Shown in pieces: positions 27,609 through 44,994 of a stretch of DNA of 64,000 bases. The notes below the pieces were generated by a model. The model was not told the origin of the DNA. It searched no databases and worked only from the letters and a program-made list of their open reading frames with translations. How positions within the stretch are numbered: position 1 is the stretch's first letter; every line of letters begins with the position of its first letter. This DNA is from Acidimicrobiia bacterium (lineage in GTDB: Bacteria > Actinomycetota > Acidimicrobiia > Spongiisociales > ZC4RG35), in the NCBI GenBank assembly GCA_965203555.1, contig CBDBCY010000004.1:1824001-1888000 (forward strand), read 5' to 3'. The translations under genes and the position numbers were made by a program.

Positions 27609-28849
<1,241 letters not shown>

Positions 28850-28853
<4 letters not shown>

Positions 28854-29863: not shown

Positions 29864-29915
29864 GAAGTTCCCTGTTCCGGGTAGTGAGCTTGCTACCCCA
29901 GAGTGGCGTCTCGGG

Positions 29916-31682
29916 TCAGAATGCCCACAGTCGGGGAATGAAAATGACGGACAGTATCCAGAAGATGACATTGAGCGGCGCCCCGGCCCGCAAAAAGTCG
30001 GCGTACTTGTACCCCCCGGGGTTGTAAATCATGGTGTTGGTCTGGTAGCCCACCGGAGTTGAGAATCCGGTGGAGGCAGCGAACGTAATGGCCATCAGGA
30101 AAGGCCGGGGGTCCACGCCGACCTGCTCGGCGGTGGAGATGGCTATGGGGGCCAGCAACACCGCCGCCGCGGCGTTGCTCATCGTCTCGGTCATGATGGC
30201 GGTCAGTAGGTAAAAAGCGGCCAGGATGGCCACCGGACCCAGATCTCCCACCAGCGCCACGGTTTGTTCGGCCAGCCAACCCGCCGCTCCGCTGGTGTGC
30301 ATAGCCACACCCAGAGGAAGCACTCCGGCCAGGAGGAAGATCACCTGCCAGTTGATGGCGCGGTAAACGTCCTCTGGTTGAAGGATCCGGGTCATTACCA
30401 GGGCAACGCAGCCGAGCAGGGCGGCCACCAGAATCGGCAGGATATCGAACGCAGCCAAACCTACGACCACCACAAGGATCCCGATGGCCAAGGGCGCCTT
30501 GTGGCGCAGGACACTGCCAGGAATCTCATTCAGAACGATCAGATCGCTGCCGCGTCGCAGATCACGAATCTGCGCCTCTTGGGCCTGTATCAGCAGGGCA
30601 TCCCCCAAGCGGAGCCTGATCGAACTGAGTTTGTCGTTGATCGTTTCGCCCTTGCGCTGCATGCCCAGCACCAGCGCCCGGTAACGGTTGCGGAAGTCGG
30701 TTTCCTTGAGGGTGTGCCCGATGAGTCTCGAATCGGGCGCCACCAGGGCTTGAACGACGCGAAGATCCTGGCTCTGCAGGGTGTCGTCGCGCAGTTCGAA
30801 ATCGGCGTTGATTCTCAGGCCCATGGTTCCCCGGAGGCGGATGAGGTCGGGAAGAGACCCGCGGACCAGCAACACGTCATCAGGTTGGAGGGTCCTTCTC
30901 AGCGGTGCCCACCCGTCTTCCCCGGCGTTGCGCACCCTCAGAACAGTTATGTCGTGATCCTCTCCCAGCCTGCTTTCCAACACTGACTTTCCCACCAGGG
31001 GGGACCCGCCGCGAATCCTGAGTTCGGTGATGTATTCACCCAAGTGATATGCGATCGACAACTCCGGCGTGGGGCGGGCCGGCAACAACCATCGTCCGAA
31101 CAGCAGAAAAAACGCCACTCCGGCTGCAAATAGCACAAGGCCCATCCGCGTGAACTCGAACATGCTGAACGCTCCGTACCCCGCTTCCTCGGAGATCGCA
31201 CTCACCAGCAGATTGGTGGAGGTCCCGATCAGGGTGCAGACCCCCCCGAACTGGGAGGCGTAGGAAAGGGGGATCAGCAGTTTGGAGGCGGCGATTCTCC
31301 GTCGGTTGGCGAGAATGGTCACCAGGGGAATGAACACGGCCACCGCAGCCGTGTTGTTGACGAAAGCCGACATAATCGTGACCGTCACCATGATCACCAC
31401 CAGCGCCGTGTAGTGATTGCGGCTGAAGCGCACCATCAACCGGCCGACCGTGGCAGTGGCGCCGGTCTTCTGCAAACCGGCACTGAGAACGAACATGGCG
31501 GCCACGGTCAGCGTAGCCGGATTGCTGAACCCCGAGAAACCCTCCCCGACGGTCACCAGGCCCAAGACCAGTAACACTCCCAGACCCAGGATGGCGACGA
31601 TGTCCAGGGGGTACCGCTCGGAGACGAACAACACCACGACCCCAACCAGGACCCCCATCACTATGAGGCCCTCGCCCGTCAT
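29916..31682 (-). CDS. SLC13/DASS-family permease with TrkA-C domains
   Basis: GFSNPA, SAFVNNT, GGVCTLIGTSTN, TPVGYQTN. Confidence 0.92.
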   Translation of the reverse strand: MTGEGLIVMGVLVGVVVLFVSERYPLDIVAILGLGVLLVLGLVTVGEGFSGFSNPATLTVAAMFVLSAGLQKTGATATVGRLMVRFSRNHYTALVVIMVTVTIMSAFVNNTAAVAVFIPLVTILANRRRIAASKLLIPLSYASQFGGVCTLIGTSTNLLVSAISEEAGYGAFSMFEFTRMGLVLFAAGVAFFLLFGRWLLPARPTPELSIAYHLGEYITELRIRGGSPLVGKSVLESRLGEDHDITVLRVRNAGEDGWAPLRRTLQPDDVLLVRGSLPDLIRLRGTMGLRINADFELRDDTLQSQDLRVVQALVAPDSRLIGHTLKETDFRNRYRALVLGMQRKGETINDKLSSIRLRLGDALLIQAQEAQIRDLRRGSDLIVLNEIPGSVLRHKAPLAIGILVVVVGLAAFDILPILVAALLGCVALVMTRILQPEDVYRAINWQVIFLLAGVLPLGVAMHTSGAAGWLAEQTVALVGDLGPVAILAAFYLLTAIMTETMSNAAAAVLLAPIAISTAEQVGVDPRPFLMAITFAASTGFSTPVGYQTNTMIYNPGGYKYADFLRAGAPLNVIFWILSVIFIPRLWAF

Positions 31683-31866
31683 GCCAACACCGGGAACCGA
31701 ACCGTGAGCAACCCGCGGCGAATGCAAATGTCCACTTCGAACAGTTTACGGGTAGCGGCGGGAATGGGAAGCGTATCCCCGGTCACCGAATCGACCGACC
31801 TCGCGGCCCGGGCCGCGGGAGATTGACCCGATCCGGCCCCGTTTGCCCACAACTAGGCTGGCGGGC

Positions 31867-32706
31867 ATGACTTTGAGGATCACAACCTCCGACGGGACCC
31901 GGATCGCATATCACGAGGTCGGCGCCGGCGCCCCACCCATCCTGTTTGTCCACGGCATCTACGGCAACCGGCTCGGTTTCGGTCTCCAGGAGCGGTACTT
32001 TTCACCCAACCACCGCTGCGTGGCAGTCGATCTCCGGGGCAACGGCGACAGCGACAAACCCGACGAGCCCTACTCGATGGCGCAATACGCCGATGACGTG
32101 GCGGAGGTCATCGGCCACCTGGGACTGGGGCGGACCGTCCTGGTGGGCCACAGCATGGGTGGCCAGGTGGTCATCTCCGTCGCCGAGCGCCATCCCGAAC
32201 TGGTGGCGGCCGTGGCCAGCCTGGACTCGCCCAGCAACATCCCCGGATGGCAGGACCGCTTCCATGGACCCTTCGATCACCTCATGACTTTCGACGGGCC
32301 CTACCGGGAGACGGTCCGTTCCTTTCTCAGCGCCGCCTACCTCCCCACCGACAATCCGGCCTGGGTGGCAGGCCTTGAGGAGCGCCTCGCCGGCATACCC
32401 GACCATGTGATCGTCAGAGCCTGGCAAGCGATGAGCGCCTACGATCCCACAGAGTCGTTGCGCCGGATGAAGTGTCCCTACCTGTACATCGACAGCGGTC
32501 AACCTGACATCGATCTCGACCGCATCCGGGAACTCTGCCCGCAGTTGGTGGTAGGCAAAACGGTAGGCGCGGGGCACAAGGCTCTACAGGACGTGCCCGA
32601 TCAGATCAACGCCATGCTCAACCGCTTCATCCAGCACGCCGACGCCATCGCGGCGGAGATGATCCGCACCGGCGGAGTCTTCCAATACAACTTCCCTAAG
32701 ACCTGA
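31867..32706 (+). CDS. Alpha/beta-fold hydrolase, array copy 1
   Basis: FVHG, DLRG.G.S, nucleophile elbow GHSMGG, GAGH; TAGGCT 7 nt before ATG. Confidence 0.9.
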   Translation: MTLRITTSDGTRIAYHEVGAGAPPILFVHGIYGNRLGFGLQERYFSPNHRCVAVDLRGNGDSDKPDEPYSMAQYADDVAEVIGHLGLGRTVLVGHSMGGQVVISVAERHPELVAAVASLDSPSNIPGWQDRFHGPFDHLMTFDGPYRETVRSFLSAAYLPTDNPAWVAGLEERLAGIPDHVIVRAWQAMSAYDPTESLRRMKCPYLYIDSGQPDIDLDRIRELCPQLVVGKTVGAGHKALQDVPDQINAMLNRFIQHADAIAAEMIRTGGVFQYNFPKT

Positions 32707-32735
32707 AACCCACGACTGAACGGATCGCTTAACCC

Positions 32736-33578
32736 GTGACTGAATCATTCATCACCTCCGACGGAGTCCGTATCGCCTATCACCAGGTAGGCGCCGGCGA
32801 CCCGGCCATCCTCTTCATCCACGGCGCGTACAGCAACCGAAGGGGCTTCGGCTTCCAGGAGGACTATTTTTCGCCCGACCACCGCTGTGTTGCAGTGGAT
32901 CTGAGGGGTAGCGGCGACAGCGACAAACCCGACCACCTTTACACCATGCCCCAGCACGCTGATGATGTAGCTGAACTCATTCGCCACCTCGGTCTCGAAA
33001 AACCCGTGCTGGTGGGACAGAGCTTGGGCGGCCAGGTGATCATCTGCGCGGCAGCCCAGTATCCCGAACTGGTCGGCGCCATAGCCAGCCTGGACTCACC
33101 CAGCAACATTCCAGGATGGCACCAGCGTTTCCATGAACCCTTCGATCACCTGATAGCAAAGGGCGGCGGGCCGCTACGGGAGGCGCTGCAAATGTTCCTC
33201 AGCGCCGCCTACCTACCCACCGACGACCCCTCTCGACTCGGGGGAATGGCCGAGCGCCTGGCGGAGGTTCCCGACCATGTCATCTACAACACCTGGCACG
33301 GCAAGAGCGACTTCGATCCCGGTCCGGTGCTGCGCCGAGTGAAGTGCCCCTATCTCTACATCGACTGCGGCCAGCCCGATCTCGACCTCGACCTGCTGCG
33401 GAAGCTGTGCCCCCAGGTGGTGATCGGAAAGACCGTCGGCGCCGGACACAAAGCCCTCCAGGACGTACCCGACCAGATCAACGCCATGCTCAACCGCTTC
33501 ATCCAACACGCCGACGCCATCGCAGCGGAGATGATCCGCACCGGCGGAGTCTTCAAATACAACTTCCCCGAGCCCTGA
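32736..33578 (+). CDS. Alpha/beta-fold hydrolase, array copy 2
   Basis: GQSLGG elbow; paralogue of copy 1. Confidence 0.9.
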   Translation: MTESFITSDGVRIAYHQVGAGDPAILFIHGAYSNRRGFGFQEDYFSPDHRCVAVDLRGSGDSDKPDHLYTMPQHADDVAELIRHLGLEKPVLVGQSLGGQVIICAAAQYPELVGAIASLDSPSNIPGWHQRFHEPFDHLIAKGGGPLREALQMFLSAAYLPTDDPSRLGGMAERLAEVPDHVIYNTWHGKSDFDPGPVLRRVKCPYLYIDCGQPDLDLDLLRKLCPQVVIGKTVGAGHKALQDVPDQINAMLNRFIQHADAIAAEMIRTGGVFKYNFPEP

Positions 33579-33675
33579 GCCGCCCCTGCTCGGAGGAAAC
33601 CGGAGTCATCCAGTTGCTGTGACCTGCGAAGGGCGCTTCAAAGGCCGTCGGGTATTCGCAACTAAGCTCCGGCTG

Positions 33676-34512
33676 ATGACTGAATGGATTACTACCTCGG
33701 ACGGCGTCGGCATCGCATACCACCAAGTAGGAGAAGGCGACCCCGCCATCGTCTTTATTCATGGCGCCTACAGCAACCGTAGAGGCTTCGGCTTCCAGGA
33801 GGAGTACTTCTCGCCCAACCACCGTTGCGTAGCGGTTGATCTTCGGGGCCACGGCGAAAGCGACAAGCCTGATGATGTTTACACCATGGACAGGCACGGA
33901 GACGACGTGGCTGAACTGATCAGTCACCTGGGGTTGAGTAAACCGGTGCTGGTGGGACAGAGCATGGGCGGCCAGGTGATCATCGCCGCTGCCGCCCGGC
34001 ATCCCGATCTGGTGGGCGCTGTCGCCAGCCTGGACTCCCCCAGCAACATTCCAGGATGGCATCAGGGACACCATGGTCCCTACCAACACCTGATGACCGC
34101 AGACGGTCCGTTCCGGGAGACACTCATAGCCTTTCTCAGCGCCGCCTATCTGCCTACCGACGACCCCTCCCGGGTTGGGGGGATGGCCGAGCGGCTATCG
34201 GAGGTCCCCGACCATGTGATTCTCAACAGTTGGCGGGACAAGAAGGATTACGATCCCACCCCCACCCTGCGCCGAGTCAGGTGCCCCTATCTTTACATCG
34301 ACTGCGGCCAGCCCGATCTCGACCTCGACCTGCTGCGGAAGCTGTGCCCCCAGGTGGTGATCGGCAAGACCGTCGGCGCCGGACACAAGGCCCTCCAGGA
34401 CGTGCCCGACCAGATCAACGCCATGCTCAACCGCTTCATCCACCACGCCGACGCCATCGCCGCCGAGATGGTCCGCACCGGCGGGGTCTTCAAATACAAC
34501 TTCCCCGAGTAG
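33676..34512 (+). CDS. Alpha/beta-fold hydrolase, array copy 3
   Basis: GQSMGG elbow; TAAGCT 7 nt before ATG. Confidence 0.9.
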   Translation: MTEWITTSDGVGIAYHQVGEGDPAIVFIHGAYSNRRGFGFQEEYFSPNHRCVAVDLRGHGESDKPDDVYTMDRHGDDVAELISHLGLSKPVLVGQSMGGQVIIAAAARHPDLVGAVASLDSPSNIPGWHQGHHGPYQHLMTADGPFRETLIAFLSAAYLPTDDPSRVGGMAERLSEVPDHVILNSWRDKKDYDPTPTLRRVRCPYLYIDCGQPDLDLDLLRKLCPQVVIGKTVGAGHKALQDVPDQINAMLNRFIHHADAIAAEMVRTGGVFKYNFPE

Positions 34513-34533
34513 AGGATGGTGTATACTGCTACT

Positions 34534-34758
34534 ATGCGGCGTATACAGCTATACTTGGACGAACACTTGGACGAGGCTCTCTCGACCCGGGCCGCGCAGA
34601 TGGCAGTCTCGCGTTCATCCTTGGTACGCGATGCAATAAGGGCCTCGCTAGGTGCACATCTGACAACACTCGCCGATCCGGTGGACAATCTCATCGGATG
34701 CCTCGACATCGAACCGGGTGACGACATCGATTCAGTGATCTACGGGCTAGAGGAGTGA
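34534..34758 (+). CDS. vapB: Ribbon-helix-helix (CopG-like) antitoxin
   Basis: MRRIQLYLDE...SRSSLVRDAI; TATACT 6 nt before ATG; GTGA overlap with the toxin. Confidence 0.85.
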   Translation: MRRIQLYLDEHLDEALSTRAAQMAVSRSSLVRDAIRASLGAHLTTLADPVDNLIGCLDIEPGDDIDSVIYGLEE

Positions 34759-35156
34759 GATTCGCGGACACCTCATTCTGGATTGGTCTCCAGGTTGCCC
34801 GGGATCGCCGCCATGATGACGCAAAGATGCTCTGGCTGGACAATCGCGGCCCGGTACGGACATCGAATCTTGTGTTAGGAGAGACATGGACCTGGTTACG
34901 CCGGAAGGCCGGCCATGCTCCCGCGGTTCGCTTCCTCTCAACAATTCAGCGGTCAAACCGAGTGTCGGTGGCTATCGTGACCCCGCCGATAGACGAGCAG
35001 GCCTGGAGATGGCTGGAACGTCATGATGAACGAGCATATTCCTATGTCGACGCCACCAGCTTTGAGATCATGCGGCGAGAGCGCATCAGCCTGGCGCTGG
35101 CGTTTGACGGTGACTTCACTTCCGCTGGGTTTGTGGAACTGCGGCCCACGTCTTGA
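34755..35156 (+). CDS. vapC: PIN-domain toxin
   Basis: FADTSFW, LGETWT, SYVDATSF, AFDGDF. Confidence 0.92.
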   Translation: MRFADTSFWIGLQVARDRRHDDAKMLWLDNRGPVRTSNLVLGETWTWLRRKAGHAPAVRFLSTIQRSNRVSVAIVTPPIDEQAWRWLERHDERAYSYVDATSFEIMRRERISLALAFDGDFTSAGFVELRPTS

Positions 35157-35182
35157 GTCGACGCTTCGTAATCCGGCTAATG

Positions 35183-35844
35183 GAAAGTGACAACCCGACG
35201 AGATCTACACCATGGAACAACACGGAGACGACGTGGCCGAGTTGATCCGCCACCTGGGCCTGGAGAGGCCGGTCCAGATGGGCCAGGGCATGGGCGGCCA
35301 GGCGATCATCTCCTCCGCCGCCCGTCACGCCGAACTGATAGGAGCGATAGGCAGCCTGGACTCACCCAGCAACATTCCAGGATGGCACCAGCGTTTCCAT
35401 GAACCCTTCGATCACCTGATAGCAAAGGGCGGCGGGCCGCTACGGGAGGCGCTGCAAATGTTCCTCAGCGCCGCCTACCTACCCACCGACGACCCCTCTC
35501 GACTCGGGGGAATGGCCGAGCGCCTGGCGGAGGTTCCCGACCATGTCATCTACAACACTTGGCACGGCAAGAGCGACTTCGATCCCGGGCCGGTGCTGCG
35601 CCGTGTCAGGTGCCCCTATCTCTGCATCGATTGCGGCCAGCCCGATCTCGACCTCGACCTGCTGCGGAAGCTGTGCCCCCAGGTGGTGATCGGAAAGACC
35701 GTCGGCGCCGGACACAAAGCCCTCCAGGACGTGCCCGACCAGATCAACGCCATGCTCAACCGCTTCATCCAACACGCCGACGCCATCGCCGCGGAGATGA
35801 CCCGCACCGGCGGGATCTTCCAATACAACTTCCCCACCAGCTAG
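35183..35844 (+). pseudogene. Alpha/beta hydrolase copy 4: 5'-truncated, chimeric, nucleophile Ser->Gly
   Basis: Homology starts abruptly at ~35183; lacks the HG oxyanion segment; GQGMGG; 35352-35558 identical to copy 2 33086-33292. Confidence 0.85.
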
Positions 35845-35958
35845 CTACAGCACTGCCCGAGTCGTCTGCTCTTTGCCTGTGGGTGGACTCGCTCATCAGC
35901 TGAGGTGCTAGAGTGCGAAGTGGCGCTGAGTGGGGAAAATGCCTCCAGGAAGAAGTGT

Positions 35959-36357
35959 ATGAATACGGAAGCCGCGGCCGGAAGGGGGGCGGATGTCGCC
36001 CTTGACCTGGGGCATCCTGGTCTGCCCAGGGACTGGGTTGAACACGTATTGAGTGTCGTCGTGTCGTATGATCCGGATAAGGTCTTTTTGTTCGGATCGG
36101 TAGCGCAGGCAGAGGACACTGTCCGCTCTGACATTGATTTGCTCGTGGCCATAGACAGGGTGCCGGTGGAAGAATGGTTTGAGTGGGAGTTCAGAATTGC
36201 CCTGGAGGCGGAACGACGCTGTCCGTTCAAGGTGGACGTGTCCTTGACAGATCTGGAGGACCTGGTACGGAGGCGAAACGTGGTGGGCAATCCGTGCAAA
36301 TGGGTGGCGGAGGGAGGTCGCCTGATCTATGACAGGAATTCAGGCGTGCTGTTGTGA
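35959..36357 (+). CDS. Minimal nucleotidyltransferase (MNT) antitoxin
   Basis: KVFLFGSVAQ...SDIDLLV (GS-X10-DxD), C-terminal EGGRLIYD. Confidence 0.85.
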   Translation: MNTEAAAGRGADVALDLGHPGLPRDWVEHVLSVVVSYDPDKVFLFGSVAQAEDTVRSDIDLLVAIDRVPVEEWFEWEFRIALEAERRCPFKVDVSLTDLEDLVRRRNVVGNPCKWVAEGGRLIYDRNSGVLL

Positions 36358-36764
36358 GTTATCTGCCGGACAACAATGAGGATGAATCCAGAGCGTATCT
36401 GGTAGAGGCATCTGTCTATTTTGAAGGGGCTGTCAGAAAAATGCGGGACGAACAGAGAGCGTGGAAACAGGCTTGTCGAGAGTTCGTCAGCTCATCGGAG
36501 ATGGCATTGAAAGCAGTACATGTCTATTACGGAACAGAACCGGACCGCACTCATCGGGTCCACGAGCTCTATGAAAGTTGTCCGGATGAAACAATTCGGC
36601 TTCTTAACATCCAGCCGGAGGACCTGAGGACCTTTTCCAGTTGGTACCTGTCCCCGTATCACATAGCCAGGGGCGCAACCAGGCGGAACGTTGAAATGTG
36701 CGAGAACATTGTCGGCAGAATTCTGAACTGGGCGGCAGGGATCGTTGACGACACAGATCACTAA
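36354..36764 (+). CDS. HEPN-domain protein
   Basis: EMALKA, RTH...L; GTGA overlap with MNT. Confidence 0.75.
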   Translation: MSYLPDNNEDESRAYLVEASVYFEGAVRKMRDEQRAWKQACREFVSSSEMALKAVHVYYGTEPDRTHRVHELYESCPDETIRLLNIQPEDLRTFSSWYLSPYHIARGATRRNVEMCENIVGRILNWAAGIVDDTDH

Positions 36765-36788
36765 TAGCTGAACTCCTATGCGAGCGAT

Positions 36789-36863
36789 CCGCGTCATCCA
36801 CCGCGCCGAGGGAATCGCAGCGGAGATGATCCGCACCGGCGAAGTCTTCCAATACAACTTCCC
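36789..36863 (+). pseudogene. Orphan 3' stub of an array hydrolase (~25 codons)
   Basis: Encodes IHRAEGIAAEMIRTGEVFQYNFP, matching the C-terminus of copies 1-5. Confidence 0.85.
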
Positions 36864-37060
36864 GAGAGGCGAGTCGAAGGTGGGTCATTCGGTCGACGAG
36901 GTTCTGCCAACACCGAGACGAGACCTGATCGCGCCGGACCCAACCGCCAACCGAAAAATATCTAACTGCACGCCGAGCGAAATATCCCGCCTTCCCCTCC
37001 TCGGCCCGCTCCTGTGTGGCAGACAGCGCGCCGCACACCGGCTTTAGCCCTGGGCGGACC

Positions 37061-37483
37061 TCAACGATGAACCGTGAAGGCCCGGCGCAGACCCGAACCG
37101 TAGCGGTAAACCGCGAAGTCGGCGTCGAACGCTATAGCTTCCTCGATGCCGTGACGTTCCATGACAACCCAACTCGTCCGATCAGTCATCGAGAAGTCCT
37201 GGTCGCTGAACATCCTCCCGATTCTCAGGGCGGCGCGGACGTCGTCTGGAGTCGCCGTCAACACTTCGGCGAGCCTTCGATCCATGATGGTCCTCACCAA
37301 GGCATCCGCCAGGTTGGGGTTCCGTCGGTAGCGCGCTATGGCCCATGTTTCCACAAGAACGTGATCGGTGGTAGCCAGCCGCCCTGCATGGTCACTTAGC
37401 AGGCGAACTGCCCGGTCATGGGAGGCGTCGTCGCCGGCCGCCGCCGCGTACCACGCACTTGTATCGACAAAGACGCGATTCAA
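37061..37483 (-). CDS. vapC: PIN-domain toxin
   Basis: VFVDTSAW, VLVETW, FSMTDRTS, AFDADF. Confidence 0.9.
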   Translation of the reverse strand: MNRVFVDTSAWYAAAAGDDASHDRAVRLLSDHAGRLATTDHVLVETWAIARYRRNPNLADALVRTIMDRRLAEVLTATPDDVRAALRIGRMFSDQDFSMTDRTSWVVMERHGIEEAIAFDADFAVYRYGSGLRRAFTVHR

Positions 37484-37762
37484 TCAGCGGTCCCTCGCGC
37501 CTATTGCTTTGCGATCCGACTGTTCGGCAACCGCCTCCGTGATCATTTCATGTTTGTTGCGGGCGATGTCGGTCGGCGCGCCTCGGCTGCCCAGGAAGCC
37601 GACGAGCGGTGTGATGTCACCGGTCAGATTCCGGGATGCCGCATCATCGGCGCGGATCAATTCTCGTATATAACCGGAAAGGCTCAATCCACGCTCTTGC
37701 GCTCGATTTTTGGCCATTGCATGCAAAGACGAACCGAGTAACACGTTGGTAGGTTTGGTCAT
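37484..37762 (-). CDS. vapB: RHH-like antitoxin
   Basis: AQERGLSLSGYIRELI, TDIARNKHE; abuts vapC; TATAAT upstream on the minus strand. Confidence 0.8.
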   Translation of the reverse strand: MTKPTNVLLGSSLHAMAKNRAQERGLSLSGYIRELIRADDAASRNLTGDITPLVGFLGSRGAPTDIARNKHEMITEAVAEQSDRKAIGARDR

Positions 37763-37858
37763 ACGTTCACCCCAAAAGAATCCTACGCATACTGCGCAAC
37801 ACATTATAGGCATCCCTGTGAGTCTCCGCCCTGCCTGCACAAACTATGCTCCGATCCC

Positions 37859-38698
37859 ATGACTGAACGGTTCACCACCTCCGACGGCGTTCGCATCGCA
37901 TACCACCAGGTAGGCGTCGGCGACCCGGCCATTATCTTCATTCACGGCGGATTCGGAAACCGAGGGGGCTTCGGCTTTCAGGAAGACTACTTCTCGCCCA
38001 AACACCGCTGCCTGGCAGTGGATCTGCGGGGTCACGGCGACAGCGACAAACCCGACGAGATCTACACGATGGAAAAGCATGGCGACGACGTAGCCGAGTT
38101 GATCCGCTCCCTGGGCTTGGAGAAGCCAGTCCTGGTGGGCCAGAGCATGGGCGGACAGGTGATCATCTCCGCCGCCGCCCGTCACCCTGAGTTGATAGGG
38201 GCGATAGCCAGCCTGGACTCACCGAGCAACATCCCCGGATGGCATGCCCGCCATCACGGTCCCTTCGATCACCTGATGACCGCGGACCAGGATTTCCGAG
38301 AGACCCTTCGCCGATTTCTGATGGCTTCATACCTGCCCACCGACGATCCGTCTCGGGTGGGGACCATCGCCAAGCGACTGGCCGAAGTCCCCGATCATGT
38401 AATCCTCAACGGCTGGCAGGGGATGATGGGCTTCGACTGTGGACCGATACTGGCCGCAGTGCAGTGCCCCTATCTGTACATCGACTGCGGCCAACCCGAT
38501 CTGGACCTGGATCTCCTGCGTGAGTTGTGCCCGCAGGTGGTGATCGGAAAGCCGGTCGGCGCCGGACACAAGGCCCTCCAGGACGTGCCGGACCAGATCA
38601 ACGCCATGCTCAATCGCTTCATCCAACATGCCGACGGGATAGCGGCCGAGATGATCCGCACCGGCGGAGTCTTCAAATACAACTTCCCCGACAACTGA
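37859..38698 (+). CDS. Alpha/beta-fold hydrolase, array copy 5
   Basis: FIHGG, GQSMGG; TATGCT 8 nt before ATG. Confidence 0.9.
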   Translation: MTERFTTSDGVRIAYHQVGVGDPAIIFIHGGFGNRGGFGFQEDYFSPKHRCLAVDLRGHGDSDKPDEIYTMEKHGDDVAELIRSLGLEKPVLVGQSMGGQVIISAAARHPELIGAIASLDSPSNIPGWHARHHGPFDHLMTADQDFRETLRRFLMASYLPTDDPSRVGTIAKRLAEVPDHVILNGWQGMMGFDCGPILAAVQCPYLYIDCGQPDLDLDLLRELCPQVVIGKPVGAGHKALQDVPDQINAMLNRFIQHADGIAAEMIRTGGVFKYNFPDN

Positions 38699-38820
38699 AC
38701 CCGACGCATCCGTCCCAAGCCAACAGCGATCGACGGCGGATTCAACACGCCTTCCCACCGATAGCATCCTCTGCCCGGTAACATCATCCGCGTGACAGGC
38801 TGGGACCTGAAAGGGGGGTT

Positions 38821-41019
38821 GTGAGCCGTCCCAAAGGCGGGACAAACCGTTCCCAACGGAAGAGGAAGCCCAAATTGCCGACGCCCTATTGGTGGGATAG
38901 CAACTCGCCTCAGTGGTCGGGGAGGCGATCCAAGCGAGGCCCGGCAACCTGGGTCCCACCCGGTGGAAGGATCCAAGTGGCGGGACGGGTGATCGAGGGT
39001 GGGATGGTCTACACCGGCGCCGGCGCCCTGGCGGCGAACGGCCGCGGATCCGAGCCGAGCCTCATCGATCCCCGCCTTCCGGTCAACTGGAAGGGCAGGG
39101 GCCGCGCCGGGGGCTTCACGTCCCACAACCCGTCATACCGACGGGCCGACCCGCGGGTTCGGGCCGCCTATCTTCAGTGGCTGGCCGGAGGGCGCCGGAA
39201 CCGTTACACCTCCATCGGCAACGTGTTCCTGTTCTTCTACGGGCTCGAACGCCGTCTGTTCGCCGACCTCGGCGCCGACCTCCACCTTCCCGAGGTGGAA
39301 GTCATCCTGGCCGAGATCGAACGTCTCCGCGGCATATACGGCCAGGAGAGATCATTCCTCAAGAGCGCCGGTGAACTGCTGGATTTCGTGGAAGGCGTCC
39401 GGTCGTTGACCACCGACGTCCAACCGGTTCCATGGACTCCGGACCGACCCTGGTCCGGGGTTCCGGCATCGGTCCGGGTCGGCATCGGCAGATATGTTGC
39501 GAAAAGTTCCCCCATTCCGGCCGAATGGGCCCTCAGCTACCTCCGCCACCATCCCCAAGGGCAACTGCGAACACCGGCCAGGCGCGTTGCCGCCGAGTTC
39601 GACCAGTTGTTCGCCATACGCTACGGGGAGCGGTTCGGACCGGGTATCCGAACGCCGAGACCGGCCGAGCACATCCAGCTCATGTACCGGGCCGCATCCT
39701 CCGGATTCCACGGAGGAGTACACGTCACCTGCGATCCCATTCCCGACGTGACGCGCGACCCGTCGCTGATCATCAAGCTGAACGAGTTGGCCAGGCAATG
39801 CCACGAGGAACTCGACGCCTACAGCCGTCTGATCGGGCGATACCCCGACCGGGCCGGCACCCCGGCCGCGGTCGGGCTGCTGCCCGATGCCCTGCTCGCC
39901 ACCCACGGTAGGACAACTCTTGACATTCTCCGGACCTGGACCTCGGAAGTGCTGGCCGACCGGCCCACAGCGGTGGTTCCCCTCGATGATCTGGTGGAGC
40001 AGTGGTCGCCCGGCCACCCCCCGAAACTCACCAAGGCCACGGTCTCTGCGCTGGCCTTCACACTCGCCAACCTCGGCGTGGGCATCGAACCCGATGTCCG
40101 TTTCGGTTCTTCTCCTCCCGGTCCCGGTACCCGGGCGGTGCTGTTCCCGCTTCCCGAGGGTGACCGGGGAAAGCCCACACCCCGGTACCGCGCCGTCCTT
40201 TCCCTGGTGTTCCTGGGTGCCTTGGTGGCCGCCGCCGACGGGGCCGTCAACCCCATCGAACACCGATTCCTCACCAAACGACTGGAGGGGATCACCGGAC
40301 TCGACACCGCCGACCGGGCCAGACTGGAGGCCCACCTGACATGGCTCGGCGTCCGGAAACCTCGCCTGCAGGATGCTCAACCCAGAGTGAAAAAGATGCA
40401 ACCCCGGGATCTGCCCAAAGTGGGAACCCTCCTGATCGAGTTGGCAGCCGCCGACGGGACCGTCAACTACGAAGAGATTGCCGTTCTGGAAAAGTTGTTC
40501 CAACTGATGGGCCTCGACGAAGCCCACCTGTACGGCCGCGCCCACACCCTGGATTTGGCGGATCGCGGTCCGATCAGCGTAGGGGAGAAGGCACCCGGCG
40601 CTCGTTGGGAGATACCCGACTCCGGCGGGGTTTCCGCGCCGCAATCGCCCGTGAACCTGGACCCGGCCAAGATCCGGGACCGCTTGGCCGAGACGGACCG
40701 GGTGGCGCACCTGCTGGCCGACATCTTCGTGGACGACGACCCGCCGCCGGAGATAGAGTCGGGCGTCAACGGTTCGGATCCCGAGTCGGCTATCGAGGGA
40801 CTGGACGGGCCGCACCGGCAGTTGTTGGACGCGCTGGCCGCCCGAGCGGAGTGGGATCGTGGTTCCGCCGAGGAGTTGGCCCGCTCCTTCGGGTTACCGT
40901 TCCTCGACAGCGCCCTCGACGTCATAAATGAAACCGCCCTCGACCACTGCGGTGAATCGGTGGTCGAGGGAGATGACCCCATGGTGCTCAATGCCGATGC
41001 CATCAAGGAGCTGATTTGA
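38821..41019 (+). CDS. sngA: TerB_N/TerB/TerB_C protein (Shango SngA-like)
   Basis: EPSLID..L.V, YLQWLAGGR, IGNVFLFFYGLERR, two ADG.V TerB motifs, ALDVINE tail. Confidence 0.85.
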   Translation: MSRPKGGTNRSQRKRKPKLPTPYWWDSNSPQWSGRRSKRGPATWVPPGGRIQVAGRVIEGGMVYTGAGALAANGRGSEPSLIDPRLPVNWKGRGRAGGFTSHNPSYRRADPRVRAAYLQWLAGGRRNRYTSIGNVFLFFYGLERRLFADLGADLHLPEVEVILAEIERLRGIYGQERSFLKSAGELLDFVEGVRSLTTDVQPVPWTPDRPWSGVPASVRVGIGRYVAKSSPIPAEWALSYLRHHPQGQLRTPARRVAAEFDQLFAIRYGERFGPGIRTPRPAEHIQLMYRAASSGFHGGVHVTCDPIPDVTRDPSLIIKLNELARQCHEELDAYSRLIGRYPDRAGTPAAVGLLPDALLATHGRTTLDILRTWTSEVLADRPTAVVPLDDLVEQWSPGHPPKLTKATVSALAFTLANLGVGIEPDVRFGSSPPGPGTRAVLFPLPEGDRGKPTPRYRAVLSLVFLGALVAAADGAVNPIEHRFLTKRLEGITGLDTADRARLEAHLTWLGVRKPRLQDAQPRVKKMQPRDLPKVGTLLIELAAADGTVNYEEIAVLEKLFQLMGLDEAHLYGRAHTLDLADRGPISVGEKAPGARWEIPDSGGVSAPQSPVNLDPAKIRDRLAETDRVAHLLADIFVDDDPPPEIESGVNGSDPESAIEGLDGPHRQLLDALAARAEWDRGSAEELARSFGLPFLDSALDVINETALDHCGESVVEGDDPMVLNADAIKELI

Positions 41020-42371
41020 CAACCGTAGACCTCGCCTCCGGCCGCATCCGTCCCCGGGACCGAGACGCGGTCATCCAGTCGTTGCGCGCCGGGGTCGTAC
41101 CCCGGGTCGGCCAGCAGCACATCCAGGTGGGGCGCGCCGATGAGGTAGTCGCGCTCCTCGGCGACATCCACCGGATAGCCGACGGAGGTTCGGCTATCCG
41201 GTTGGTGATCGGTGAGTACGGGGCCGGTAAGTCCTTCTTCCTGAACCTGGTGCGTTCCATCGCGCTCGAGCGCAAGCTCGTCACCGTTCACGCCGACCTG
41301 TCACCCGAGCGACGCCTCTACGCCACCGGCGGCCAGGCCCGAGGTCTGTACGCCGAGTTGATGCGCAACCTGTCGACGCGGGCGAAACCGGAGGGCGGCG
41401 CCATGCCGTCGGTGGTGGAACGCTTCATCACCGCCGGCCTGGGCGAGGCTCGCTCCCGTAACGTCGACCCGGAGACCGTGATCCGCGAACGGCTCGCCGA
41501 GCTCCAGGAGCTGGTCGGCGGATACGACTTCGCCGAAGTGATCGCCGCCTACTGGCGCGCACATGACACCGGCCAAGAACAGTTGCGCTCCGATGTGGTG
41601 CGCTGGCTCCGCGGCGAATTCTCGACCCGCACCGACTCCCGGAAGGCGCTCGGGGTGCGCACCATCATCGATGATCGCAGCTTCTACGACCATTTGAAGC
41701 TGTTCGCCCGGTTCGTCCGTCTCGCCGGGTTCTCCGGTCTCCTGGTCTGCCTGGACGAGATGGTGAACCTCTACAAGATGTCGCACACCCGGGCCCGAAA
41801 CTCCAACTACGAACAGGTGCTGCGCATCCTCAACGACTGCTTGCAGGGTTCGGCCGCCGGACTCGGGTTCGTGTTCGGCGGCACCCCCGACATGCTGTTC
41901 GACACCCGGCGCGGCCTCTACTCGTACCCGGCGCTGCGTTCGCGCCTGGCCGAGAACTCCTTCACGCGCCAGGGGCTGGTGGACTTCTCCGGACCGGTGC
42001 TGCGGCTGGCCAACCTGTCTCCCGAGGACATGTTCGTGCTGCTGACCAAAATCCGGCATGTCTTCGCGAGCGGCGACCCTGATGCCCACCTGGTGCCCGA
42101 CGAGGCGTTGACCGCGTTCATGAACCACTGCGCGGCCCGGGTCGGTGACGCCTACTTCCGCACGCCGCGCACCACGATCAAGGAGTTCGTGGACCTCCTC
42201 TCGGTCCTTGACCAGAACCCCGGCGTGGAATGGTCCGATCTGATCGACCGGGTCAAGATCGAGCCGGAGACCAATCCGGATCTGTTGCCAATGGGAAGCG
42301 GCGCCGGACCCCCGCAGCCCAATCCGGAAGCGGCGGCCGGTGATGACAACCTCAGCCATTTCCGTCTCTGA
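41016..42371 (+). CDS. sngB: DUF2791 P-loop ATPase (Shango SngB-like)
   Basis: IQSLRAGVVP..G...IQVGR, GEYGAGKS, CLDEMVNL, ALRSRLAEN. Confidence 0.9.
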   Translation: MTTVDLASGRIRPRDRDAVIQSLRAGVVPRVGQQHIQVGRADEVVALLGDIHRIADGGSAIRLVIGEYGAGKSFFLNLVRSIALERKLVTVHADLSPERRLYATGGQARGLYAELMRNLSTRAKPEGGAMPSVVERFITAGLGEARSRNVDPETVIRERLAELQELVGGYDFAEVIAAYWRAHDTGQEQLRSDVVRWLRGEFSTRTDSRKALGVRTIIDDRSFYDHLKLFARFVRLAGFSGLLVCLDEMVNLYKMSHTRARNSNYEQVLRILNDCLQGSAAGLGFVFGGTPDMLFDTRRGLYSYPALRSRLAENSFTRQGLVDFSGPVLRLANLSPEDMFVLLTKIRHVFASGDPDAHLVPDEALTAFMNHCAARVGDAYFRTPRTTIKEFVDLLSVLDQNPGVEWSDLIDRVKIEPETNPDLLPMGSGAGPPQPNPEAAAGDDNLSHFRL

Positions 42372-44691
42372 AGCCGCCGCCGACCCCTCTGCGGCGTTCA
42401 CCCGGTTGCACCCGCGGATACAGCGCTGGATATACGACCAGGGATGGACCTCGCTGCACGACGCGCAGGAGCGCGCCATCGGTCCGATCCTGGACGGCGA
42501 TCGCGATGTGATCATCGCCGCGGCGACCGCCGCCGGGAAGACCGAGGCCGCTTTCCTGCCAGTCCTTTCGAACCTGGCGGACGCCATCGACCGGATTTCG
42601 CCCGTTCAGCAGGCCCCGTGGACGGACTACGACCCGTGGGCGGAACCGGCGACCGGAAGACCCGTGGGGGTGCAGGTGCTGTACGTGTCGCCGATGAAGG
42701 CGCTGATCAACGATCAACACGGACGCCTCGCCCAGATGTGCGAACGGGTGGATATCCCCGTGCATCGCTGGCATGGAGACGTCTCGGCGGCGGCGAAACA
42801 GAAGCTGGTGGCCGACCCGGGCGGCGTGCTGCTGATAACCCCCGAGTCCTTGGAGGCCCTTTTCGTCAACCGGGGGCCGCTCGCGCCTCGCCTGTTCGCC
42901 GGGTTGGACTACATCGTGATCGATGAGCTCCACTCCTTTCTGGCCACGCAACGGGGCGTCCAGTTGCAATCGCTGATGAACCGAGTCGAACTGGCGATCC
43001 GCCGGAGACCGCCCCGTATCGGACTGTCGGCCACCCTCGGCGACATGGCGCAGGCCGCCGCCTTCCTCCGCCCGACCGACCCGGAGCAGGTCTTGGTGGT
43101 CGAGTCGAGGTCCGACGGCAGGGAGTTGATGCTCCAACTGCGCGGCTATGTCGCCGACTGGCCGACGGCCGGCGTGGAGGACGGGAGGGAACGGACCGTC
43201 GACCCTGCGCCGGTCGACTCGGCGGGACACGCGCAGGAGATCGCCGCGCACTTGTTCCGACATCTGCGCGGCAATGACAACCTGGTGTTCGCCAACACAC
43301 GCAACCATGTGGAGACCTACGCCGACCTGCTCGCTCGTCGCAGCGACCGGGAGCGGGTCCCCAACGAGTTCTGGCCCCACCACGGGAACCTGTCCAAGGG
43401 TTTGCGCGAAACCATCGAGACCAATCTGAAAGACCGCACCCGACCGGCCACGGCGGTGAGCACGTCCACACTCGAGCTGGGAATCGACATAGGATCGGTT
43501 GCGAGCGTGGCCCAGATCGGACCACCGCCTTCGGTCGCATCCCTGTGGCAGAGGCTGGGCAGATCGGGTCGCCGCCATGATCCCGCCGTACTGCGACTGT
43601 ACGTGACCGAACCGCCCCTCGACGAGCGGTCCTCTCCCGTTGACAGGCTGCGCTGCAACCTCGTGCAGACCACCGCCATGGTGCGCCTCATGCTCGGGCA
43701 GTGGCTCGAAACCGCCGACGATCCCGGATTCAACTACTCGACGCTGGTCCAGCAGATCATGTCGGTGATCGCGCAGCACGGCGGCGCCACCGCCGCCGAC
43801 CTGTACGGAGCGCTGTGCGGACCCGGTCCGTTCCGGCTCGTGGACCAGGGGAGGTTCGCTCGGCTCCTCCGCGCCATGGCGTCCCACGACCTCCTGATCC
43901 AGGCTTCCGACGGCCTGCTGTTGTTCGGGACGGCCGGGGAACGTCAGGTCAATCACTACCGCTTCTACGCCGCATTCCACACCGCCGACGAGTGGCGGGT
44001 CGTGAACCGCGGCCAGACCCTCGGCACGCTCCCCATCTACCAGCCCCTTCGTCAAGGCGTGTTGCTGATCTTCGGCGGGAAACGTTGGGAGGTCACCCGT
44101 GTCGACCGGTCGGCGCGCGTCGTGGAGTTGGAAAGGTCAGCGGGCGGCGTACCACACTTTTCCGGCGGCCACGGACCTGCCGTGTCGGACCGGGTCCGGG
44201 CGGAGATGGCAGCCGTGTACCGATCCAGCGACATCCCGGCATGGCTCGATCCGGTAGCGCAGCGGCTTCTCTCCGAGGGCAGAGCAGCGTACCGCCGACT
44301 CCGGCTGGCCGATACCACGGTGGTCACCGACGAATCGGGGGTGTTGCTGTTCCCCTGGGCCGGTGACCGCGCTCTCTACACCGCCGTGATGGCGTTGATC
44401 GACCAAGGCGTCGAAGCCAGCGTAGAGGGTCCCGCCATCCGGATTGTCAAGACCGGCGCCAATGAGACCTCGGCCACAATCGCCCATCTCCTCGCCAACC
44501 CTCCCCCGGCGCCTGAGGCCCTGGCGGCAGTCGTCGAGAACCGCGAGATCGACAAGTGGGACCGGGTGCTCGACGAGACTTTGGCCTGCGAGTCCGCGGG
44601 CGCCCGACTTTTCGACATCGACGGCGCCTGGGCGCTCTTCGCCCGGGTTGCGCCGGACCTGGCCGAAACCCCGAAGCAAAATCCGTGCTGA
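42340..44691 (+). CDS. sngC: Lhr-like DEAD/DEAH helicase (Shango SngC-like)
   Basis: ATAAGKTEAAF, DELH, LSAT, TSTLELGID, QRLGRSGR. Confidence 0.9.
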   Translation: MMTTSAISVSEAAADPSAAFTRLHPRIQRWIYDQGWTSLHDAQERAIGPILDGDRDVIIAAATAAGKTEAAFLPVLSNLADAIDRISPVQQAPWTDYDPWAEPATGRPVGVQVLYVSPMKALINDQHGRLAQMCERVDIPVHRWHGDVSAAAKQKLVADPGGVLLITPESLEALFVNRGPLAPRLFAGLDYIVIDELHSFLATQRGVQLQSLMNRVELAIRRRPPRIGLSATLGDMAQAAAFLRPTDPEQVLVVESRSDGRELMLQLRGYVADWPTAGVEDGRERTVDPAPVDSAGHAQEIAAHLFRHLRGNDNLVFANTRNHVETYADLLARRSDRERVPNEFWPHHGNLSKGLRETIETNLKDRTRPATAVSTSTLELGIDIGSVASVAQIGPPPSVASLWQRLGRSGRRHDPAVLRLYVTEPPLDERSSPVDRLRCNLVQTTAMVRLMLGQWLETADDPGFNYSTLVQQIMSVIAQHGGATAADLYGALCGPGPFRLVDQGRFARLLRAMASHDLLIQASDGLLLFGTAGERQVNHYRFYAAFHTADEWRVVNRGQTLGTLPIYQPLRQGVLLIFGGKRWEVTRVDRSARVVELERSAGGVPHFSGGHGPAVSDRVRAEMAAVYRSSDIPAWLDPVAQRLLSEGRAAYRRLRLADTTVVTDESGVLLFPWAGDRALYTAVMALIDQGVEASVEGPAIRIVKTGANETSATIAHLLANPPPAPEALAAVVENREIDKWDRVLDETLACESAGARLFDIDGAWALFARVAPDLAETPKQNPC

Positions 44692-44775
44692 TGGAAATGC
44701 CCCGTTGACAATAGGTATGTTTATTGTGGTAGCCCGACATCATTGGGAAAGGGGCTGTACGTGAGGGAGATCACC

Positions 44776-44955
44776 ATGACCACCACCCCGTGCAACCAAG
44801 TGACCACCGTGCGCCTCGCCGCAGCGCCCTTCAGTCTGGAATCGGTCCACGGATCCGTCACACCCGCCCGGACCCCCGAGGACTTCAAGAATATCTCCCG
44901 CCACGCCAAAGAGTCCAAGGCCGCCGACACCATGCAGAAACTCCGTGAGACATGA
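44776..44955 (+). pseudogene. Small ORF resembling the C-terminal half of an AbrB-type antitoxin
   Basis: VRLAAAPFSLESVHGSV.P...PEDF; GGGAG RBS and TTGACA upstream; no toxin follows. Confidence 0.35.
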
Positions 44956-44994
44956 TGTCAACAAAACCGTGTCCAACACCACAGTCGTCGGCGC

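Follow-up and report, generated by a model that had tools for sequence, protein, structure and literature searches.

The locus was examined in a marine actinobacterium, Acidimicrobiia bacterium (GCA_965203555.1, contig CBDBCY010000004.1; labelled G000), within a window of 64,000 nucleotides, the whole stretch of DNA that was analysed. It was compared between species of one genus, giving 17 loci made up of G000 and the loci of 16 relatives. Tandem hydrolase copies, 3–8 in each, were found in 15 of the 16 congeners between the lysC-asd and EamA transporter genes, and G033 also carried tandem copies. Synteny placed asd at the locus in 14 of the 16 relatives and EamA in all 16; the exceptions at the left flank were G015, where the contig is too short, and G033, which has a different left flank. 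The features of the G000 locus, including its toxin-antitoxin (TA) pairs, are as follows.

29916..31727, reverse strand, SLC13/CitMHS-type permease with two TrkA-C domains (Pfam CitMHS 291 bits, Na_sulph_symp, TrkA_C)
31867..32706, forward strand, H1, intact alpha/beta hydrolase of type T1 (Pfam; elbow GHSMGG, HG, GAGH; T1 clade support 100); the longest open reading frame begins at TTG 31843
32736..33578, forward strand, H2, intact hydrolase of type T2 (Pfam, elbow and HG motifs, tree)
33676..34512, forward strand, H3, intact hydrolase of type T3 (Pfam, motifs, tree); longest open reading frame from 33619
34516..34758, forward strand, TA1 RHH (CopG-type) predicted antitoxin (RHH_1 27.8 bits; likely true start ATG 34534)
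34755..35156, forward strand, TA1 PIN (VapC-type) predicted toxin (PIN 52.8 bits; 4-nt overlap with the antitoxin)
35187..35844, forward strand, H4, dead hydrolase copy (sequence comparison; open reading frame 35212–35844, homology from about 35187)
35905..36357, forward strand, MNT nucleotidyltransferase, MntA-like predicted antitoxin (Polbeta 36.1 bits, NTP_transf_2)
36354..36764, forward strand, HEPN protein, HepT-like predicted toxin (HEPN 34.9 bits; 4-nt overlap with the MNT gene)
36775..36866, forward strand, orphan stub, the final ~90 nt of a hydrolase gene with the body absent (D7 copy 36789–36863, 89%)
37061..37483, reverse strand, predicted PIN toxin of the inverted pair (PIN 53.3 bits)
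37484..37762, reverse strand, presumed antitoxin of the inverted pair, 92 aa (position upstream of the PIN gene)
37859..38698, forward strand, H5, intact hydrolase of type T5 (Pfam, motifs, tree, structural model)
38821–41019, forward strand, SngA, TerB (PADLOC E 7e-69; Pfam TerB_N/TerB/TerB_C)
41016–42371, forward strand, SngB, ATPase (PADLOC E 1e-180; Pfam BrxC_BrxD)
42340–44691, forward strand, SngC, helicase (PADLOC E 5e-264; Pfam DEAD, Helicase_C)
44995..46491, reverse strand, AAA_14/DUF4143 ATPase matching candidate defence family PDC-S01 (Pfam, PADLOC)
32622–32696, 33494–33568 and 34431–34505, forward strand, copies 1–3 of the conserved 75-nt hydrolase 3′ end (repeat family D7)
35760–35834, 36789–36863 and 38614–38688, forward strand, copies 4–6 of the same 3′ end (repeat family D7)

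The gene order given in the original prediction was confirmed by the open reading frames and their Pfam domains, and by contigs from three independent studies. Its domain calls also held in Pfam, except for the small gene upstream of the inverted PIN gene, which is RHH-like by eye only and gave no Pfam match. The hydrolase repeats are 74–98% identical and short-read contigs end inside them, so that paralogous repeats might have been joined wrongly in a metagenome-assembled genome. Such an artefact is most improbable, as every cargo junction was bridged by contigs of runs X1, X4 and X5 (three studies) with 0–43 mismatches, and complete single-contig relatives agree on the orthologous gene order. 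The contigs of all three runs spanned the junctions of H3, the RHH-PIN pair and H4 (34413–35381); they also spanned H4, MNT-HEPN, the stub and the PIN-antitoxin pair, running from 35760 to 38584, 38167 and 37650 respectively, with those of X1 and X4 continuing into H5. The misassembly that had been named as a possible refutation was therefore not found. The identical arrangement in these contigs fits stabilisation of the locus as well as recent common descent.

The products of H1, H2, H3 and H5 passed the Abhydrolase_1 and Abhydrolase_6 cut-offs (78–84 bits against a cut-off of 25.8) and contain the G-x-S-x-G elbow, the HG oxyanion motif and the catalytic histidine, while no NCBIfam equivalog was reached at its cut-off. 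Residues S96, H237 and D209 are invariant across 76 copies, and we infer that D209 is the catalytic acid. The structural model of H5 (pLDDT 89.6, pTM 0.91) has a core sheet with an inserted helical cap at residues 125–203, the helices at 128–200 lying between strands 115–119 and 205–208. Across the 76 full-length copies the mean column entropy was 1.13 bits in the cap and 0.95 bits in the post-HG loop, compared to 0.19–0.29 bits in the C-terminal helix and tail, and 19 of the 30 most variable positions fell in the cap. These entropies, mapped on the H5 model, bear out the predicted contrast between a near-invariant C-terminus and a variable cap and post-HG loop.

A tree built on codons 1–210 resolved five orthology types, each a single clade with support of 96–100. 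The order T1-T2-T3-T5 was found again in G004 and G008, and likewise in G007 with the second copy untyped, so the intact genes show the fixed order in relatives that the original prediction had listed as counting against it. The hydrolase array is thus old, with its intact genes in a fixed order across species. The types differ mainly in the cap, where dN was 0.32 between paralogues versus 0.096 between orthologues, and the orthologue dN/dS of 0.09 in the cap indicates purifying selection within each type. The proposal of a diversified hydrolase repertoire is upheld by this conservation, and as each type keeps its own cap it presumably also has its own substrate. On this reading the array would consist of esterase-like alpha/beta hydrolases that have sub-functionalised and have long been passed on vertically, and that may act on small esters or lactones.

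The 3′ ends of the genes have a different history. The terminal 75 nt are present in six copies with 89–96% identity, and from about nt 630 onward identity was 0.92 between paralogues of the same genome, 0.87–0.89 between orthologues and 0.87–0.89 between non-orthologues. For the final 150 nt, monophyly of T5, T1 and T3 was rejected by AU tests (p 0.016, 0.001 and 0.006), and C-terminal dS was 0.41 within genomes versus 0.68 between orthologues. The terminal 150–200 nt of all copies, which encode the final helix and the G-G-V-F-x-Y-x-F-P tail, have been homogenised by gene conversion within the genome. The repeat is coding sequence, and its conservation at the protein level extends to homologues that are 43–48% identical.

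Two further pieces of hydrolase sequence in G000 are dead. H4 lacks codons 1–63, and hence the HG motif, and its elbow reads GQGMGG with the nucleophile serine replaced by glycine; the prediction that the hydrolases keep the nucleophile elbow was correct for H1, H2, H3 and H5 and failed for this copy. No Pfam family matched H4 at E 0.001. The copy is chimeric, with the first 150 nt closest to H5 and the remainder H2-like. Seven of nine 50-nt windows from 35337 were 98–100% identical to H2 and the other two 88%, and this near-identity was counted as support for gene conversion. The stub is the only orphan hydrolase 3′ end among the 17 loci. The sisters G007 and G008 have ~80 nt between T3 and T5. 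In G000 all the additional material lies in this T3-T5 spacer, namely both remnants, which probably derive from at least one redundant hydrolase copy that decayed, and all three TA pairs of the locus, placed in and around H4 and the stub.

TA1 is a predicted type II VapBC system, as its domain pair, single operon and 4-nt overlap fit that class. The antitoxin open reading frame starts 3 nt past the H3 stop codon. The MNT-HEPN pair is a predicted type VII HepT/MntA system by domain pair, gene order and 4-nt overlap. The HEPN protein of HepT/MntA systems is defined by an R-x4-6-H motif; R-x4-H (RTHRVH) occurs in the HEPN translation and GS...DIDLL in the MNT translation, and the MNT protein scored 31 bits against NCBIfam MntA, under the cut-off of 60. 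The MNT region has a lower G+C of 0.55. The inverted-pair PIN protein has a 78–82% identical homologue in G009, located outside the array and interrupted by an IS21 element, and the product of 37484..37762 is 75% identical to a G009 homologue that is also encoded upstream of a PIN gene. TA1 recurs in G008 behind T5 (antitoxin 75% and PIN 87% identical; nucleotide homology block 34517–35165). In three genomes TA1 or its relic follows a hydrolase gene, of another type in each, and lies within 3–18 nt of that gene's stop codon, a placement that random insertion does not obviously predict. Relatives of TA1 in G010 and G001 sit behind an unrelated gene, the G010 copy being 85 kb from the array, indicating that TA1 is not array-specific. 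TA pairs were present at the loci of G000, G008 and G009, with a TA relic in G006. In 13 of the 16 relatives' loci no TA was detected near the array by tblastn with six TA proteins or by Pfam on open reading frames from large gaps (41 large and 111 small, the latter giving 0 matches to TA families).

The three genes at 38821..44691 were confirmed as a Shango operon by gene content, with a predicted anti-phage role. Shango is described as three genes for a TerB-domain protein, an ATPase and a DEAD/DEAH helicase (PMC10250203). The Shango block of G008 is 86% identical and is placed between T2 and T3. TA1 and Shango are thus common to both genomes, yet they stand behind different hydrolase types, consistent with relocation. 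Of 63 hydrolase spacers, 45 were no longer than 150 nt and 10 were longer than 500 nt. The long spacer of G007 contains a methylase, Vsr, a SNF2 helicase, a PDC-S36-like protein and a transposase fragment; others contain an IS element (G002) or a ParA-like gene (G033), and duplicated neighbouring genes occur in those of four genomes. As sister spacers carry Shango, the methylase/Vsr/SNF2 island or an IS element, the array is a general cargo site. The edges also vary, with the SLC13 permease on the left flank present only in G000 and G008 (94% identical) and homologues of the AAA_14/DUF4143 ATPase found at other positions of the same locus in G006, G007 and G009. PDC-S01-like ATPases were identified by PADLOC in G000 and G007, and by Pfam domains and tblastn only in G006 and G009. 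The same interval between conserved genes therefore holds different defence systems among genomes, as in a core defence hotspot.

The original prediction was that the TA pairs were selected because they kill segregants in which recombination between the hydrolase repeats has removed part of the array, so preserving a substrate-diversified repertoire. Nowhere else in the genome are PIN/HEPN genes clustered as tightly as in these three pairs, which fit within 2.3 kb (P 0.009 if placement is random) and are flanked by long direct repeats of 74–91% identity. Their order is identical in the contigs of three studies. TA cassettes have been reported to limit cassette loss in the sedentary chromosomal integrons of Vibrio (Richard et al. 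2024, PMC13108822). This explanation is nevertheless unlikely for the array, where 3–7 copies persist in the 13 relatives' loci without detected TA, the intact genes hold one order across species, and no TA pair lies between H1, H2 and H3. It is the decayed hydrolase pieces that adjoin the TA pairs, and sister species carry non-TA cargo in the same spacers. Two other TA triples of similar density occur in the G000 genome, within 4.3 and 6.8 kb and outside tandem repeats, so that TA density elsewhere, which had been set as a refuting observation, was found. Counter-selection of array collapse by the TA pairs is thus not supported.

A second explanation is a cassette platform operating without an integrase, in which circles of cargo plus a hydrolase 3′ end would excise and re-insert at any copy by host homologous recombination; the units RHH-PIN-H4, MNT-HEPN-stub and PIN-antitoxin-H5 would each end in the 3′ repeat. 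MNT-HEPN does lie between two copies of the 3′ end (35760–35834 and 36789–36863), TA1 and Shango have diverged between G000 and G008 about as much as core genes yet follow hydrolases of a different type in each, the G007 island joins the second hydrolase copy within its final codons, and both hydrolase copies preceding Shango end in AAC-TGA. An orphan 3′ end was however found in only 1 of 17 loci, the right ends of the G008 Shango block and the G007 island lack any hydrolase fragment, and a tree of the last 180 nt did not group the 3′ ends that precede the same cargo. TA1 relatives also follow an unrelated gene, and because the spacers are so short any intergenic insertion abuts a hydrolase 3′ end, making such a platform unlikely. 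A site-specific, integron-like array with the hydrolase 3′ end as an attC-like site is suggested by the cassette-like layout with six direct repeats, but is close to refuted: the 121-nt sequences spanning the six repeat copies folded no better than shuffles (z −1.5 to +0.5) and contained no attC-like fold, and the repeat is coding sequence conserved as protein. An Rfam search of 28000–47000 gave no match. The three tyrosine-recombinase (Phage_integrase) matches in the genome, at C4:709 kb, at C4:2525 kb and on C1, all lie outside the window and the genome has 0 resolvase matches, in agreement with the predicted lack of an integrase in the window.

The locus is probably a conserved enzyme array that also serves as a hotspot on the chromosome where defence and TA cargo gather. 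The observations show that the cargo varies, that dead hydrolase copies lie next to the TA pairs and that the assembly is sound. The short spacers and two edges of the array would form the hotspot, where horizontally acquired TA pairs, Shango, restriction-modification-like genes and IS elements may accumulate and turn over. Cargo could arrive and move on mobile elements, or through homologous recombination in which the hydrolase repeats serve as the shared sequence; the G000 genome contains no mobile-element scar or recombinase that accounts for its arrival. The TA pairs would be passengers, either selfish or related to defence, that inserted at a place where this carries no cost, rather than a device selected for holding the array together. 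Post-segregational killing by the predicted TA pairs may incidentally disfavour deletions of the T3-T5 interval. The tightest TA cluster of the genome lying in one spacer could also arise from selection for retention.

The array with its cargo is a new example of phenomena that are already known. The hydrolases share their fold and helical cap with small bacterial carboxyl/aryl esterases and cofactor-free haloperoxidase-type hydrolases (4uhc, 1va4, 1zoi, 1a8s), a Foldseek search of the H5 model giving esterases at TM 0.72–0.78, and the closest relative by sequence was the meta-cleavage-product hydrolase DxnB2 (4lxg; phmmer E 6e-20). The G-x-S-x-G elbow, HG oxyanion motif and C-terminal histidine are common to the array enzymes and these esterase/haloperoxidase-type relatives, but identity to the best solved relatives is only 21–25% and the array family has its own C-terminal tail. 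The bacterial paralogues tufA and tufB undergo concerted evolution by gene conversion, and in both cases paralogue segments stay similar within a genome while orthologues diverge. Unlike tufA/tufB, conversion in the array is limited to the last 150–200 nt of 3–7 tandem copies and the remaining ~650 nt keep clean orthology.

The interleaving of TA pairs with arrayed genes separated by direct repeats, where loss of a TA pair would kill the cell, resembles the Vibrio integrons as reported. The array differs from them in having no integrase, attC sites or promoterless cassettes; the units repeated in it are long-established orthologues whose order is fixed, and in relatives the array persists without detected TA pairs. 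Sponge-symbiotic Actinobacteriota have been reported to be enriched in TA and restriction-modification genes (PMC11706023). A parallel to the cargo is seen in cDHS1 and cDHS2 of Pseudomonas aeruginosa, described as core defence hotspots with Shango among their contents (Johnson et al. 2023, PMC10250203), where conserved genes likewise bound a fixed interval with differing immune systems in each genome and transfer by homologous recombination through the conserved flanks was also proposed. That study, as described, covered thousands of isolates, while the present comparison covers 17 genomes across species of a genus, and the array cargo is small (0.65–6.8 kb) in contrast to that of cDHS1 and cDHS2. 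Unlike these hotspots, the present one lies inside and beside an array of tandem paralogues, and so offers several internal landing sites.

Four intact alpha/beta-hydrolase genes (H1, H2, H3 and H5) were located between a permease gene and the Shango anti-phage operon, whose SngA, SngB and SngC genes were confirmed using PADLOC. Three toxin-antitoxin (TA) modules and two hydrolase fragments are interleaved with them.

Features of the hydrolase locus (window positions)
29916–31727, minus strand: permease gene, left neighbour of the hydrolase array
34516–35156: RHH/PIN TA module (VapBC-type), interleaved with the hydrolases
~35187 to 35844: region of hydrolase homology of H4, the truncated copy
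35905–36764: MNT/HEPN TA module (MntA/HepT-like), interleaved with the hydrolases
~36775–36866: hydrolase 3' stub of 90 nt
37061–37762: inverted PIN gene with a small upstream gene, the third interleaved TA module
44995–46491: AAA_14/DUF4143 gene, next after Shango, with a PADLOC match to the candidate defence family PDC-S01

The layout of hydrolases and TA modules in the original prediction was found to be correct from the ORFs, domains and repeat copies, with the exception of H4. The hydrolases had been said to keep the nucleophile elbow; H4 lacks its first 63 codons and its nucleophile serine is gone (GQGMGG). H4 is also chimeric: its first 150 nt are closest to H5 (84–86%), and from 35337 onwards seven of nine 50-nt windows compared with H2 are 98–100% identical, the other two being 88% identical. 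Six copies of the final 75 nt of the hydrolase gene occur in the window, at 89–96% identity, and across the whole 3.4-Mb genome close hydrolase copies are confined to this locus. Scan counts for promoters and terminators in 31600–45100 were not above those of shuffled sequences, and an Rfam search of 28000–47000 gave no matches. Repeats of another kind occur elsewhere in the window. An 878-aa ORF at 15921–18557 (minus strand), beta-propeller-like by eye, contains 11 tandem 132-nt (44-aa) repeats of 61–75% identity. A 1042-aa SLH-domain protein at 46750–49878 (minus strand) gave two weak matches to the HExxH metallopeptidase motif, and its gene contains an internal duplication of ~1.15 kb (47330–47835 against 48485–48981), parts of which are 96–100% identical.

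The gene order was upheld against misassembly by Logan contigs from metagenome runs X1, X4 and X5, which represent three studies; X4 is labelled sponge metagenome and X5 coral metagenome, while X1 is possibly the source sample and is therefore not independent. The junctions from H3 through RHH/PIN to H4 (34413–35381) are bridged in all three runs with 0–8 mismatches. The junctions from H4 through MNT/HEPN and the stub to the inverted PIN-antitoxin pair are bridged from 35760 to 38584 in X1, 38167 in X4 and 37650 in X5 (0–43 mismatches), the X1 and X4 contigs extending into H5 and the X5 contig stopping within the antitoxin gene. The order is therefore real and common to populations that are ~98–99% identical; contigs cannot reveal rare variants, and those of X1 give no cover at 41.5–46 kb. 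Three contig joints, 33828 to 38024 in run X7 and 31922 to 32799 and 32825 to 33787 in X5, were considered as deletion variants and rejected. Each joint connects paralogues in register, its sides are short (25–41 nt) and extra letters lie in between; these joints look like genes of relatives or cross-matching repeats. Downstream of Shango, at 44954–44990, 35 nt are swapped for 201 other letters in the X4 and X5 contigs, which is a strain-level difference.

The hydrolase array is old and the order of its intact genes is fixed. Among 40 relatives searched, 15 of the 16 congeners carry tandem copies, as does G033, a genome of another family; the remaining congener, G011, has an assembly of 290 contigs with 89% completeness. 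The lysC-asd genes flank one side in 14 of the 16 fetched loci and EamA transporter genes flank the other side in all 16. Among the 80 hydrolase-derived pieces of the 17 loci, 76 are full length, and a tree built on the first 660 nt clusters the copies by position and not by genome. When codons 1–210 were compared across the seven members of the clade to which this genome belongs, the five position-defined orthology types each formed a single clade with support of 96–100. The intact genes of this genome belong to types T1, T2, T3 and T5, and their order recurs in three relatives: in G004 with spacers of 14–105 nt, in G008 with Shango between T2 and T3, and in G007 with an island of 6.8 kb separating the second and third copies. 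The second copy of G007 was excluded from the trees because of its altered end.

Several further hydrolase copies and remnants were observed among the relatives. G033, which is classified in a different family of this order, has hydrolases of three types (67–85% identical) and EamA (84% identical) without adjoining lysC-asd; transfer of the block or a classification quirk could explain this. A lone extra paralogue, 66–69% identical to H5, lies ~30 kb from the array in nine genomes of the other clade (clade B; for example G002:C1:2474733–2475563) and was not detected in the clade of this genome. Remnants in G012 (L023 5868–6269) and G001 (L013 12016–12201) have an internal deletion with the start and C-terminal tail kept; the former is in frame (134 aa) and the latter has stop codons inside. 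The spacer between the second and third hydrolases of the other clade holds a conserved region of ~340 nt without an ORF but with conserved blocks (L022 9415–9753), found also in G002, G012, G013, G014 and G016, and this stretch may be regulatory or encode an RNA.

Orthologous hydrolases gave a dN/dS of 0.09, in the core as in the cap. The cap comprises residues 125–203 of a confident structural model (pLDDT 89.6) and contains 19 of the 30 most variable alignment positions; its dN is threefold higher between paralogues (0.32) than between orthologues (0.096). The closest solved folds are small esterases, aryl esterases and cofactor-free haloperoxidases, with TM scores of 0.72–0.78 at 21–25% identity. 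We therefore infer a substrate-diversified repertoire, as originally predicted, and one that is ancient. The top sequence match was the C-C hydrolase DxnB2 (E 6e-20), and no NCBIfam equivalog matched the hydrolases at cut-off. An enzyme array this long-lived and sub-functionalised may be relevant to the nutrition of a sponge- and coral-associated actinobacterium.

From approximately nt 630 onwards, 60-nt windows gave the same identity for orthologues and non-orthologues (0.87–0.89 each), with paralogues of the same genome at 0.92. In the last 150 nt the types scatter, requiring 14 changes against a shuffled mean of 14.2, and AU tests rejected monophyly for T5 (p 0.016), T1 (p 0.001) and T3 (p 0.006), the types having been defined on columns other than these. 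The dS of codons 244–277 was 0.41 within genomes and 0.68 between orthologues, compared to 0.9–1.25 elsewhere. The conserved 3' end is a gene-conversion tract, and the locus is a clean natural example of gene conversion limited to one end of tandem enzyme genes. Constraint at the protein level adds to this conservation. The C-terminal tail is the least variable part of the protein (0.19 bits), and homologues that are just 43–48% identical share a similar terminal G-x-[FY]-x-Y motif.

The relatives did not bear out the appealing idea that the array is guarded against collapse by TA pairs. Six TA-protein queries detected TA genes only in G008, where RHH/PIN follows the last hydrolase, and in G009, outside the array, together with a relic in G006 consisting of the C-terminal half of an RHH gene behind T1; the same queries found none in the remaining 13 loci. 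The short spacers are too small for a TA pair, and none of the 111 small ORFs of the large spacers matched a TA family. All cargo of this genome sits in the single T3-T5 spacer, which is 81–82 nt in G007 and G008, and it surrounds two dead hydrolase pieces, with no TA between the living H1, H2 and H3. The genome is TA-rich, with 33 PIN and 7 HEPN matches, and although the triple at the array is its tightest (2.3 kb, P 0.009), similar triples span 4.3 and 6.8 kb in regions without long tandem repeats, giving three within 8 kb where 0.1 was expected. The 13 loci without detected TA, the dead copies beside this genome's modules and the TA clusters away from repeats together argue against stabilisation. 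Overall, the observation in the original prediction is confirmed and its interpretation partly supported. G010 and G001 carry relatives of RHH/PIN that follow an unrelated gene of 271 aa next to an amidase; the G010 pair is 85 kb away from the array. The region around the window is likewise TA-rich, with a further PIN gene at 19974–20330 (plus strand) and, ~1.1–1.9 kb before the window start (C4:1822079–1822893), a HEPN match beside a 53% identical MNT homologue.

RHH/PIN (block 34517–35165, 84% nucleotide identity) and Shango (block 38703–44716, 86% identity) are common to this genome and G008. Their divergence is similar to that of core genes, yet in G008 they lie behind different hydrolase types, which points to movement within the locus, for which recombination among the repeated genes is the simplest route. 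The route by which the cargo arrived is one that we infer. The MNT/HEPN module (G+C 0.55) is flanked by two copies of the hydrolase 3' end, an arrangement consistent with a circle having integrated through that homology or with the remnant of a deletion. No homologues of this block or of 36864–37145 were found in the 16 loci, and among species-representative genomes none of 52 pattern matches to HEPN was confirmed by tblastn.

The bracketing of MNT/HEPN would also be the clearest footprint of a broader explanation, in which the 3' end would serve as a shared homology site through which circles of cargo plus 3' end are captured, moved from one array position to another and exchanged between strains by host recombination. 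The gene-converted 3' end could then be more than a by-product, and the locus would be an integron-like gene-capture platform without an integrase. No recombinase was found in the window. We consider this explanation improbable because an orphan 3' end occurs in only one of the 17 loci; moreover, co-travel of 3' ends with cargo did not show in a tree of the last 180 nt. Shared AAC-TGA and GTC/GGG variants were too weak as evidence of co-travel, and attC-like folding of the 3' repeat gave no signal and was rejected.

Spacer contents vary widely between genomes. Of 63 spacers in 17 arrays, 45 are ≤150 nt, 8 are 151–500 nt and 10 exceed 500 nt. The long spacers hold three TA pairs in this genome, Shango in G008, an IS element with an rve transposase in G002, a ParA-like gene in G033 and, in four genomes of the other clade, a duplicated neighbour block of EamA and a 534–567-aa protein without a Pfam family. 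The 6.8-kb island of G007 (L019 6600–13454, second-third hydrolase spacer) encodes a C5-methylase, Vsr, a SNF2 helicase, a NOV_C/PDC-S36-like protein and an uncharacterised 448-aa protein, with a DDE transposase fragment at its left edge. The island junction takes the place of a hydrolase stop codon, making that hydrolase ~25 residues longer. The array edges carry DUF4143 ATPases in G006, G007 and G009, a solute-binding protein in four genomes, an IS481 element in G013, a serine recombinase in G004 and, in G009 (L021 4007–6971), an IS21-type element, with an rve/Mu-transposase C-terminal domain and IstB, that interrupts a homologue of the inverted PIN/antitoxin pair. Between asd and the first hydrolase of G004 (L016 5861–8043, minus strand), a resolvase N-terminal domain is encoded by a 203-aa ORF that overlaps another of 547 aa lacking any family match, and the two may be one large serine recombinase.

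Two systems that seem to be one are thereby separated, a long-lived enzyme array and a fast-turning defence/TA hotspot in its spacers. The main interest of the locus is as a tidy natural case and a search site, the interval from lysC-asd to EamA being a place to seek new defence genes in uncultured Acidimicrobiia. No published description of the array was found in titles and abstract openings on TA modules or hydrolases of sponge-symbiont Acidimicrobiia, and the words hydrolase, esterase and tandem do not occur in PMC11706023. The concept of core defence hotspots is published, and Shango itself was found in one (PMC10250203). The variation of cargo at this locus fits that idea, and the locus adds a new example to phenomena already known, an old array of paralogues with 3' gene conversion doubling as a defence/TA hotspot.
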